From Catajapyx aquilonaris (Eukaryota): a stretch of 43,216 nucleotides of DNA. A model generated the notes under the pieces. It was not told the origin of the DNA and did no database searches. It saw only the letters and a list, made by a program, of their open reading frames with translations. The stretch's first letter is position 1. Every line of letters starts with the position of its first letter. A program made the position numbers and the translations under genes. Shown in pieces: positions 34,435-35,539 of the stretch. Location of the stretch: the NCBI GenBank assembly GCA_000934665.2, contig JYFJ02003370.1, forward strand, positions 1 to 43,216. Direction: 5' to 3'.

Positions 34435-34919
34435 ATGGCTTTCCAGCCACCAAATGCAAGGCAAGGTGTGGAAATATATGTTCTTTTTCTTGTTCTAATT
34501 ATGCTGGGGACTAATGTTAATTATTTTCCAGTGATTAGAAGTGATGAATTGTAGCGTTAAAGTTGTTTATTGGCAGAGATGCAGAACCGGAAGATTCTGG
34601 AGGAACTTCAGATGAAGAAGCAGATTCTGCTGAAGCAAGGAGCCGCACCGTCGCTTAATTCGACACCTATTGTACCCACTACTAACATTTCAGCCGGAAT
34701 GGTTTGTATTGCAGCGTCATTTTATCTAATGAGAGTCATGCAATTTCTGTACTTATCCAGCCGCCGTACACGACGCCAGAGTCGCACATGATGTCTTCAG
34801 CTCAACGCACAGCTATTCAGCATGCTCAGGGACAATCGTTTGGATACTTCATCGGACAAGAGTCGTCTTTTGGAAACCTGATACTTCCGGTGCTGCCCCG
34901 ATTAGAAGATCGCAAGTGA
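34435..34919 (+). CDS. INIP: SOSS complex subunit C (INIP/C9orf80 homolog), 104 aa, 3 coding exons
   Basis: Exons 34435-34465, 34577-34701, 34761-34919 (GT-AG). Protein [32 protein letters not shown]...[38 protein letters not shown]; the [17 protein letters not shown]-terminus is the SOSS-C signature. Confidence 0.95.
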
Positions 34920-35539
34920 TGGCTTGTATGCGGTTGAAAGAACTGGAGTCGCGGCTTCAGGCTGTGGCGACGTTTCCAAGCCCAAAAGTACAGCTTGAAC
35001 AGTACGCCACTAGGCCGCACATAGCCGCCTGCATGCTTCATACCATACAAGCCCAGTACGGTGATATCGAGTCCAAAGTGGTGGCGGACTTGGGATGTGG
35101 ATGTGGAGTACTGACTATTGGGTGTGGACTGTTAGGTGCTGGGGCTGTCGTCGGGTTTGACATAGATGCTGAGGCACTCACAGTGTCACGTGACAATTGC
35201 GATGACGATAACGTTGATTTTGTGATGTGTGATGTAACAAGTGGCGGGATTCATAACCGGTTCGATACTGTGGTTATGAATCCGCCGTTTGGCACCAAGA
35301 AAAACACAGGAATTGATATGCTCTTTTTGAAAAGTGCGCTGGACATTTCGAGTGATGCGGTGTACTCGCTGCACAAGACGTCGACACGTGCGCACATACA
35401 CAAGCGCGCTAAGGAGTGGGGCGTTAGTTCGGAAGTACTTGCAGAGCTGCGGTTTGACTTGCCCGCGTCGTACAAATTCCACAAAAAGCAGTGTGTGGAC
35501 GTGCAGGTTGACTTCTGGAGATTTTCGCACCACGTCTGA
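34919..35539 (+). CDS. METTL5: rRNA N6-adenosine methyltransferase METTL5 (18S rRNA m6A), 206 aa, single coding exon
   Basis: [14 protein letters not shown]...[24 protein letters not shown]-binding [11 protein letters not shown]; catalytic [34 protein letters not shown]. The ATG at 34919-34921 shares its A with the INIP TGA. Confidence 0.97.

Follow-up and report, generated by a model that had tools for sequence, protein, structure and literature searches.

An arthropod copy of the pancrustacean SOSS-C–METTL5 two-ORF gene with a one-base stop/start overlap

The window analysed here (the whole 43,216-nt stretch of Catajapyx aquilonaris contig JYFJ02003370.1) holds an arthropod copy of an old pancrustacean SOSS-C(INIP)-METTL5 two-ORF gene, of the type represented by the upstream ORF of Drosophila CG9666. 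The SOSS-C ORF lies immediately 5' of METTL5 on the same strand with no gene between them, and the stop codon of the first and the start codon of the second meet in a TGATG. The overall account that we somewhat favour is one of a two-ORF mRNA on which METTL5 would be made by a scanning-dependent route, with reinitiation the likeliest form of that route in the window. The pair itself is already known in kind from the CG9666 upstream ORF, as that is described in PMC2276209; what is new is the window copy with its TGATG overlap.

Mature mRNAs that encode two proteins are uncommon in animals, and the route by which the second protein is translated is rarely known. This pair was kept together across insects, branchiopods and copepods, with a spacer that stayed AUG-free over lengths ranging from +270 nt down to a 4-nt overlap, and it offers a compact, conserved test case for leaky scanning versus reinitiation after a long ORF. 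A pipeline that annotates a single CDS on each mRNA can overlook one of these genes or fuse it to the other, as in the fused gene models, carrying both PF15925 and methyltransferase domains, that were found in a beetle and an ant.

Gene models and the TGATG junction

The features of the locus are as follows.

31592..34190 (upper bound approximate), minus strand: SHQ1, divergent from INIP; CS domain at 33800-33949 (PF21413, 1.6e-13), Shq1 domain at 32697-33263 (PF04925, 6.9e-23), spliced RNA contigs
34214..34283, no strand: tandem repeat of a 30-nt unit, CAAAAATGGCGACCCGATATGGCTTCTCTC, 2.3 copies, in the short interval between SHQ1 and the divergent INIP (Tandem Repeats Finder)
34435..34465, plus strand: INIP/SOSS-C exon 1; ATG at 34435 in the context AAACGATGG (A at -3, G at +4); RNA joint 34463->34575 (GT..AG, cut +2)
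34577..34701, plus strand: INIP/SOSS-C exon 2, 125 nt; RNA joints 34463->34575 and 34700->34760, and translation
34761..34919, plus strand: INIP/SOSS-C exon 3, coding for the conserved C-terminus and ending in TGA at 34917-34919; Pfam SOSSC PF15925, 8.9e-16
34917..34921, plus strand: TGATG, INIP stop and METTL5 start, with base A 34919 common to both codons (sequence and ORF list)
34919..35539, plus strand: METTL5 ORF, intronless, 206 aa; start context AAGTGATGG; Pfam MTS, 1.5e-15; RNA contigs over 34760-35087 and 35277-35589
35650..35760, plus strand: first ATTAAA hexamers 3' of the pair (35650, 35755; hexamer scan), where the two-ORF mRNA probably ends
35883..37810, minus strand: DMAP1, convergent with METTL5; relatives named DMAP1 that carry PF05499/PF16282, a spliced RNA contig and tblastn

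Based on RNA joints and sequence, the INIP CDS is join(34435..34465, 34577..34701, 34761..34919), three exons giving a product of 104 aa. Exon 3 scored 59.6 bits against PF15925, with a cut-off of 27 (E 8.9e-16), and the product showed 61–64% identity to the proteins named SOSS complex subunit C in cockroach and stick insect. The METTL5 ORF matched the class I SAM-methyltransferase fold profile MTS (PF05175) at 1.5e-15, and its named relatives among the best 120 matches listed were METTL5, at 59–66% identity over 89–100% of the query; 66% was also the highest identity to any protein among the matches listed. It carries a glycine-rich SAM loop (DLGCGCG) and the catalytic NPPF within MNPPFGTK, the residues N121, P122, P123 and F124 being invariant across a 42-sequence alignment, and we take the NPPF motif together with the SAM loop to define the METTL5 family. 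By profile and nearest named relatives, the upstream ORF is predicted to be SOSS-C/INIP and the downstream ORF METTL5. Members of the METTL5 family carry out m6A methylation of 18S A1832 with TRMT112, and SOSS-C/INIP proteins bind INTS3 and SSB1 in the SOSS complex.

The junction had been read from the sequence as ...CGC AAG TGA at 34917-34919 followed by ATG GCT TGT ATG CGG TTG AAA GAA from 34919, and this is exact, with one base in common. The accompanying claim that the junction leaves no space for a poly(A) signal also holds, because the interval 34400-35650 contains 0 AATAAA or ATTAAA hexamers.

Chance juxtaposition or a pseudogene was ruled out as an explanation for the locus, because neither ORF is disrupted and both are conserved and expressed.

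In the flanking regions, the tandem repeat at 34214..34283 was placed relative to the SHQ1 5' exon joint 33952->34012 seen in RNA contigs, and may be a candidate promoter element. The DMAP1 exon was closest to branchiopods and insects (61–71% identity). Taken with the identities of INIP and METTL5, this marks the window as arthropod and probably pancrustacean, the protein comparisons having turned up no near relative. A convergent DMAP1 beside METTL5 was also observed in two metagenome loci, L039 and L045.

Transcripts of the locus

The RNA evidence consists of assembled spliced contigs from one sequencing run (X1), and such contigs drop rare forms. A 482-nt contig covers 34436-34463, 34575-34700 and 34760-35087, corresponding to INIP exons 1–3 and the first 169 nt of METTL5, and a second contig covers the 3' part of METTL5 (35277-35589), with a gap in contig cover at 35088-35276. 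The spliced contig that crosses the junction by 169 nt shows continuity there and suggests that both ORFs stand on one transcript, the contigs not spanning both ORFs end to end; we infer one molecule that takes in the two ORFs and reaches the poly(A) site. The proposal that one transcript bears both ORFs was supported by this INIP-to-METTL5 contig, the lack of an intervening poly(A) signal and the presence of the same tandem on single transcripts of relatives. It is very probable that a single mRNA carries both the INIP and METTL5 ORFs in the window organism.

METTL5 could instead come mainly from a separate mRNA, produced either from an internal start in INIP intron 2/exon 3 or as an isoform that skips exon 2. 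If this 125-nt exon were skipped, the INIP AUG would be in frame with METTL5 and an N-terminally extended METTL5 would result; arithmetically, 34465 joined to 34761 does bring the two into frame. Consistent with this, the METTL5 frame is open for 62 codons 5' of its ATG, from 34733, no ATG occurs in the last ~95 nt of exon 3, and the two-ORF form of one ant lineage (L038) looks badly suited to scanning. Against it, 62 open codons would arise by chance with a probability of ~0.05-0.08, the related lineage L029 has the same stretch by descent, and copepod mRNAs that run from leader to poly(A) hold both ORFs. The only INIP joints among the contigs were 34463->34575 and 34700->34760, and no loose non-genomic contig ends near 34436 or 34919 were reported among the X1 contigs; the missing exon-skipping joint is weak evidence, because contigs drop rare forms. 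Overall, a mainly separate METTL5 mRNA is considered unlikely.

Age and spread of the pair

In Drosophila, CG9666 (Mettl5) has a conserved upstream ORF of 129 aa with a Ka/Ks of 0.29 (Hayden & Bosco 2008, BMC Genomics 9:61, PMC2276209), and the same source reports uORF-mORF pairs of this type on single ESTs in Diptera, Hemiptera and, furthest out, Artemia. The upstream-ORF sequence printed in its supplement is SOSS-C-like and has the same motifs as the window INIP, namely an N-terminal ...NRKILEE.Q.KKQ.L... and a C-terminal ...FGN..IPVLPRL.... As far as the source describes it, CG9666 matches the window in the identity and order of its two proteins, and in carrying them on a single mRNA, which is very probable for the window. 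In the parts of PMC2276209 examined, the 129-aa ORF is not called SOSS-C and neither its spacing nor its mechanism is given, whereas the window ORF is 104 aa long with five internal Met and a one-base overlap.

The sequence-only reading had suspected a Drosophila pairing, and had suggested that the linkage would then be ancient rather than new. Both suggestions agree with the SOSS-C-like upstream ORF of CG9666 and the reach of such pairs to Artemia (PMC2276209): the SOSS-C–METTL5 linkage is old, as indicated by the CG9666 uORF, the Artemia EST and the tandem transcripts of relatives. In the literature search, the name CG42374 was not found, and nor was an INIP/SOSS-C and METTL5 pair under those names, including as dicistronic or bicistronic.

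The distribution of the pair was compared across 80 METTL5 loci on environmental metagenome contigs. A SOSS-C ORF was found directly upstream on the same strand in 38 of the 80, representing 28 lineages, many of which are related copepods and so not independent samples. Among the 42 loci without an upstream SOSS-C, 17 have <300 nt of upstream sequence and cannot be judged, and the other 25 have 40–57% identity to the window METTL5 and are probably other eukaryotes; the set gives no guide to the presence or absence of the pair outside Pancrustacea. The earlier description of such overlaps as rare in animal nuclear genes remains correct in general, but the SOSS-C–METTL5 pair is widespread in Pancrustacea.

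The distance from the SOSS-C stop to the METTL5 start varied from -4 to +270 nt across lineages, so the exact overlap is not conserved. Close abutment of the two ORFs does recur: of the 28 other lineages, 3 have overlapping ORFs (two with ATGA, one with TAATG), and in another 6 the ORFs lie 2–6 nt apart. A single overlap, taken alone, cannot be tested for chance.

Spliced leaders and trans-splicing

Ten of the tandem loci begin with CopepodSL, the calanoid spliced leader (Yang et al. 2015, PMC4664967), in each case ahead of SOSS-C, and 3 of those 10 have poly(A) after METTL5. These complete leader-to-poly(A) copepod mRNAs keep both ORFs undivided.

The occurrence of trans-splicing in some pancrustaceans, and of CopepodSL on these 10 loci, raises the possibility that a spliced leader is added at the AG at 34915-34916, just before TGATG, to give a capped METTL5-only mRNA as in an operon. 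Copepods also have Fra10Ac1-SOSS-C-METTL5-profilin units with TTTCAG acceptors at the outer boundaries. However, a leader directly before METTL5 was found in 0 of the 80 loci, copepods included, and the window junction (GATCGCAAG followed directly by TGATG) is without a pyrimidine tract. No contig carries non-genomic letters at 34919, and a cut there would strip the INIP mRNA of its stop codon. Trans-splicing at this site is considered extremely improbable.

Spliced-leader operons are known from nematodes and tunicates. The likeness to such operons lies in co-transcription on one precursor, the copepod SOSS-C-METTL5 pair being inside units of this kind. Unlike in those operons, the pair stays uncut in leader-capped, polyadenylated copepod mRNAs, and the overlap in the window is too tight for both 3'-end formation and an acceptor.

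Upstream AUGs and start contexts

The METTL5 AUG in the window is preceded by eight AUGs, comprising the INIP AUG, five in-frame and two out-of-frame. The two out-of-frame ORFs within INIP have 16 and 19 codons and both end upstream of the METTL5 AUG; every upstream frame closes before or at that AUG. Out-of-frame ATGs were not depleted (2 versus 0.92 expected), and exon 3 includes an ATGATG.

The relatives show a different pattern. Their spacers contained 1 ATG versus 21.9 expected (20 lineages with a gap of >=6 nt; 0 of 2000 shuffles as low), a density of 1 per 1552 nt of spacer compared with 52 per 2982 nt behind the METTL5 stop. In the SOSS-C ORFs of 22 relatives, out-of-frame ATGs numbered 11 versus 31.8 expected (0 of 1000 shuffles as low), compared with 118 versus 143.6 in METTL5 of the same contigs, and internal Met made up 0.83% of SOSS-C versus 3.0% of METTL5. 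At the SOSS-C start, the 23 lineages scored had A at -3 in 11 cases, G in 9 and T in 3; at the METTL5 start, the 29 lineages scored had A at -3 in 21 cases, G in 8 and no pyrimidine. The AUG-free spacers and AUG-poor SOSS-C ORFs of the relatives fit a scanning-dependent access to METTL5, and this depletion points to leaky scanning, rather than reinitiation, as the putative ancestral route.

The ant lineage L038 has a 167-nt spacer with an ATG and an AUG-rich upstream ORF, and fits neither simple model.

In green algae, mutagenesis linked the same signature to leaky scanning, the route by which bicistronic loci are translated there from mRNAs whose ORF 1 starts in a weak context (Duenas et al. 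2025, PMC11892635). As described in that source, the algal loci are likewise conserved nuclear two-ORF mRNAs with AUG depletion before ORF 2, as seen in the relatives of the window. Leaky scanning would operate in the window too if some 43S complexes bypassed the eight upstream AUGs and started at METTL5, and the relatives' AUG-free spacers, AUG-poor SOSS-C ORFs and -3 bases all speak for this explanation. The window itself differs, in that its first AUG has a strong context (A at -3, G at +4) where the algal ORF 1 context is weak (PMC11892635), and is followed by seven more AUGs, including the ATGATG, with no depletion of out-of-frame ATG. The window is the outlier against its AUG-poor relatives, apparently the variant in which leaky scanning is least possible, and we consider this route improbable there.

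Proposed route to METTL5

In the proposed mechanism, an RNA polymerase II transcript would start in the short region shared divergently with SHQ1, be spliced twice inside INIP, continue from exon 3 into the intronless METTL5 and probably end after the ATTAAA at 35650/35755. SOSS-C would be made by ordinary cap-dependent initiation at the first, strong-context AUG, and the METTL5 AUG would be reached on the same mRNA by a scanning-dependent route. In the window, the small subunit would terminate at UGA, stay on the mRNA and restart at the AUG that lies two bases further on. Leaky scanning probably has a larger share in those relatives whose SOSS-C ORFs are poor in AUG and whose spacers lack it.

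Reinitiation is taken as the likeliest route in the window because eight AUGs lie upstream and every upstream frame closes before or at the METTL5 AUG. The three other lineages with ATGA or TAATG overlaps were also counted in its favour. Reinitiation after an ORF of ~100 codons is usually inefficient in eukaryotes, which counts against it here. The original proposal of reinitiation was thus sustained in part: the eight AUGs before METTL5, the first of them strong, favour it, but the AUG depletion of the relatives is a leaky-scanning signature and the overlap is not conserved. Weighing these points of sequence, termination-coupled reinitiation as the main METTL5 route in the window organism is plausible, though somewhat short of probable.

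Termination-reinitiation at stop/start overlaps is known from viruses, as in influenza B M1/BM2 (UAAUG) and in caliciviruses and victoriviruses (AUGA/UAAUG), where it depends on a pseudoknot or on an element further upstream that is complementary to 18S (TURBS, UGGGA). The TGATG of the window has the same pentanucleotide overlap geometry. Both also have a long upstream ORF, which in the window would likewise be fully translated, and a downstream AUG that scanning ribosomes would not reach independently. Unlike the viral systems, the window has 0 copies of the calicivirus-type TGGGA within 90 nt of the INIP stop (2 of the 28 relatives have one), the comparison covering 18S complementarity of the TGGGA type, and the predicted RNA fold of the junction region is no better than that of shuffles (z -0.32).

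It has also been suggested that the rRNA mark made by METTL5 itself tunes reinitiation in a feedback loop, which we regard as highly improbable. A tentative and rather doubtful possibility is that in the lineage of the window, and independently in no fewer than three other pancrustacean lineages that have AUGA or UAAUG, the spacer of an old leaky-scanning mRNA collapsed to an overlap that now supports virus-like reinitiation after an ORF of ~100 codons, without a TURBS-type element. If true, the spacings, which range from -4 to +270 nt, would amount to a natural experiment on animal reinitiation after long ORFs.

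Gene models at the INIP–METTL5 junction

The sequence-only reading had described a TGATG overlap between the two ORFs, and this is borne out: INIP, encoding the small DNA-repair protein SOSS-C, ends CGC AAG TGA with its stop at 34917-34919, and METTL5, the 18S rRNA methylase gene, reads ATG GCT TGT ATG CGG TTG AAA GAA from 34919, one base being common to both. From stop to stop, METTL5 has an open frame over 34733-35539, and that of INIP closes at 34919. The METTL5 ORF (34919-35539) encodes 206 aa with a Pfam MTS match of 1.5e-15, and the 52 aa product of INIP 34761-34916 matches Pfam SOSSC at 8.9e-16, far over the gathering score. 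After splicing, the INIP CDS is 315 nt and encodes 104 aa.

Gene features around the junction
34435-34465, + strand, INIP exon 1, from RNA contig joints with cut offsets
34577-34701, + strand, INIP exon 2, from RNA contig joints with cut offsets
34761-34919, + strand, INIP exon 3, from RNA contig joints with cut offsets
upstream of INIP, - strand, SHQ1 (PF21413, 1.6e-13; PF04925, 6.9e-23)
35883-37810, - strand, DMAP1, convergent with METTL5

Transcript evidence

The RNA evidence consisted of contigs of the only public run found to contain this sequence, of unrecorded kind, compared over 31000-39000; the run was taken as RNA-derived because short introns, bounded by GT..AG or CT..AC, are missing from its contigs. 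Record 2 (482 nt) joins 34436-34463, 34575-34700 and 34760-35087 and continues unbroken 169 nt into METTL5, while record 3 corresponds to 35277-35589. The contigs leave 35088-35276 and the region upstream of 34436 uncovered, and none of the records reaches across both ORFs. The claimed lack of a poly(A) signal between the ORFs also held, with neither AATAAA nor ATTAAA present in 34400-35650; ATTAAA hexamers occur at 35650 and 35755. Given this absence and the contig continuity, the INIP mRNA must run into METTL5, and most likely runs all through it.

Production of METTL5 from a separate or alternatively spliced mRNA is unlikely. Ahead of the METTL5 ATG, 62 codons in the METTL5 frame are free of stops (34733-34918), and by our own arithmetic skipping of the 125 nt exon 2 would place the INIP AUG in this frame; no exon-2-skipping joint was present among the RNA contig joints, and the RNA contigs had no loose, non-genomic sequence at either 34436 or 34919. 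The environmental locus L029, which has a TAATG overlap, likewise has 62 open codons before the METTL5 ATG, probably by shared descent.

Prior knowledge of the pair

The available portions of Hayden & Bosco 2008 (PMC2276209) list a 129-aa conserved-peptide upstream ORF for Drosophila melanogaster CG9666 (Ka/Ks 0.29, against 0.04 for the main ORF), place both ORFs on one EST as far as Artemia franciscana and, in the supplement, align the upstream ORF with aphid, Artemia, tsetse, sandfly, mosquito and other Drosophila. Because this ORF shares N-terminal and C-terminal motifs with the window INIP, it is, on motif comparison, fly SOSS-C, an identity unstated in those portions, which also give neither spacing nor mechanism for the pair. 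The suspicion that the Drosophila orthologues are dicistronic was thus well placed. In the literature searched, no mention of the name CG42374 was found, nor any description of METTL5 and INIP/SOSS-C as a dicistronic or bicistronic pair. The locus adds one more case of an old two-ORF gene that was already known.

Fused models with PF15925 and methyltransferase domains were seen in 2 of 35 longer SOSS-C relatives, Trypoxylus (299 aa) and Temnothorax (315 aa). SOSS-C and METTL5 proteins share one listed longest contig size in Periplaneta, and likewise in Bacillus rossius; in the bivalve Solemya the two sizes differ.

The tandem in environmental loci

A METTL5 alignment of 42 sequences (A1) was used to retrieve 80 loci from metagenome contigs. 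By phmmer, 37/80 had a SOSS-C ORF immediately preceding METTL5 on the same strand, and by a C-terminal motif scan 38/80, the addition being the truncated L039; at 95% METTL5 identity the 38 tandem loci form 28 lineages. Among the other 42, 17 were too short for judging (<300 nt upstream) and 25, with METTL5 at 40-57% identity, are probably from other eukaryotes. A lineage comprising ten genomic contigs resembles cockroach or termite (identity to Periplaneta 80-81% for METTL5 and 90% for the SOSS-C exon), and another is ant, its SOSS-C being 95% identical to that of an ant.

Near-abutting ORFs recur across lineages. The gaps from SOSS-C stop to METTL5 ATG were -4, -4, -1, 2, 2, 2, 3, 5, 6, 11, 17, 17, 20, 24, 32, 39, 41, 43, 43, 49, 71, 77, 125, 133, 149, 167, 204 and 270 nt (median 28 nt, 28 lineages; -1 in the window). 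The stop/start overlap is therefore a lineage state, one among many, and not a conserved feature.

The calanoid copepod spliced leader (Yang et al. 2015; PMC4664967) stood at the start of 10/80 loci; three of these ten, with poly(A) after METTL5, represent full-length mature mRNAs, about 1.1 kb long, that include both ORFs. A leader added by trans-splicing directly before METTL5 is hardly credible, since it was found in 0/80 loci, though the same copepods have TTTCAG acceptors at the Fra10Ac1/SOSS-C and METTL5/profilin boundaries in longer contigs.

In calanoid contigs (L006:1-2796, L002, L034, L021, L032, L008), up to four ORFs follow one spliced leader in the order Fra10Ac1 (PF09725), SOSS-C, METTL5 and profilin (PF00235), the outer boundaries being marked by TTTCAG; L001 has the leader attached precisely behind the TTTCAG that is seen unspliced in L002. 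These units look like operon-type transcription; the word 'operon' does not appear in Yang et al. 2015. Because poly(A) starts immediately after TTTCAG in the L004, L005 and L019 mRNAs, where related contigs (L006:2010-2105, end of L008) run on into the profilin leader, the METTL5 mRNA 3' end seems to coincide with the next gene's trans-splice acceptor. In the holometabolan-like L029:1108-1623, a third same-strand ORF about 70 nt after METTL5 encodes a Bromo_TP histone fold (PF07524, 3.2e-16).

METTL5 is intronless in the window and in the termite-like genomic contigs while SOSS-C retains introns, a pattern that would fit either retroposition of METTL5 into the INIP 3' UTR or selection disfavouring introns downstream of the first stop codon.

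AUG content and translation of METTL5

Spacers of at least 6 nt (20 lineages) held 1 ATG against 21.9 expected by shuffles (0/2000 as low); empirically, 1 ATG in 1552 nt of spacer compared with 52 in 2982 nt taken from up to 150 nt behind the METTL5 stop. Out-of-frame ATGs in SOSS-C numbered 11 against 31.8 expected (22 lineages with complete CDS; 0/1000 codon-order shuffles as low), the start being taken as the first Met and the ORF being open to the contig 5' end in 4/22; in METTL5 of the same contigs they numbered 118 against 143.6 (P 0.004). Many lineages are related copepods and hence non-independent samples for these counts and for those that follow; effect sizes are large nonetheless. 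Internal Met made up 0.83% of SOSS-C and 3.0% of METTL5, and the -3 base was A 11, G 9, T 3 at SOSS-C starts (n=23) and A 21, G 8 with no pyrimidine at METTL5 starts (n=29).

The AUG-free spacers fit METTL5 being reached by ribosomes scanning from upstream, and argue against internal entry and a separate start, for which spacer content would be irrelevant. The AUG-poor upstream ORF points to probable leaky scanning in copepod-type relatives; green-algal bicistrons share the AUG signature of these relatives, and there mutagenesis linked it to leaky scanning (available part of PMC11892635). The ant lineage (L038:187-1358), with one ATG in its 167 nt spacer and an AUG-rich SOSS-C ORF (2 in-frame, 4 out-of-frame), agrees with neither leaky scanning nor simple reinitiation.

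The window INIP is an outlier: it contains five internal Met codons, and its out-of-frame ATGs number 2 against 0.92 expected. Several AUGs had been noted upstream of the METTL5 start; there are eight, the first with A at -3 and G at +4. Leaky scanning would have to pass all eight and is quite improbable here. TGATG is where the in-frame ORFs end; both out-of-frame ORFs terminate upstream of the METTL5 AUG. Since ribosomes translating INIP from whichever in-frame AUG would all terminate two bases before the METTL5 AUG, termination-coupled reinitiation would be the best-fitting route, and we favour it tentatively. Against it, the TGGGA-type motif found upstream in caliciviruses is absent from the last 90 nt of INIP, and the junction fold is unremarkable (z -0.32). 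Reinitiation after long ORFs is also inefficient as a rule. An 80S reinitiation route independent of cis-elements is described for yeast in the available part of PMC11952965. The translation mode of METTL5 in this two-ORF gene deserves a bench test. The feedback loop via 18S methylation raised in the sequence-only reading is a speculative one.

Neighbouring genes and protein relatives

SHQ1 has a 5' intron (joint 33952->34012 in RNA contigs) and diverges from INIP out of a few-hundred-base interval containing a 30-nt tandem repeat. This repeat (34214-34283; 2.3 copies, 87% matches, AAAATGGCG-type motifs) contains ATG six times; transcription of the repeat would turn these into upstream AUGs.

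DMAP1 is also convergent behind METTL5 in L039 and L045 (tblastn, 61-66% identity). In Littorina as in Mya, the listed longest contig size is the same for the SOSS-C and DMAP1 proteins, which hints at an older INIP–DMAP1 linkage.

The DMAP1 exon was closest to arthropods (Cyclestheria 71%, Triops 67%; mayfly, sawflies and Daphnia-group 65-67%). Full-length INIP shared 61-64% identity with SOSS-C of cockroach and stick insect, and METTL5 was at most 66% identical to named proteins among the best 120 relatives listed. These identities place the source of the DNA among the arthropods, probably in Pancrustacea, and the protein collection contained no near relative.

Two long + strand ORFs at 39612-41067 contain reverse-transcriptase-like sequence, probably a LINE-type retroelement, and a high-depth contig (380) touches the window at 38599-38632.
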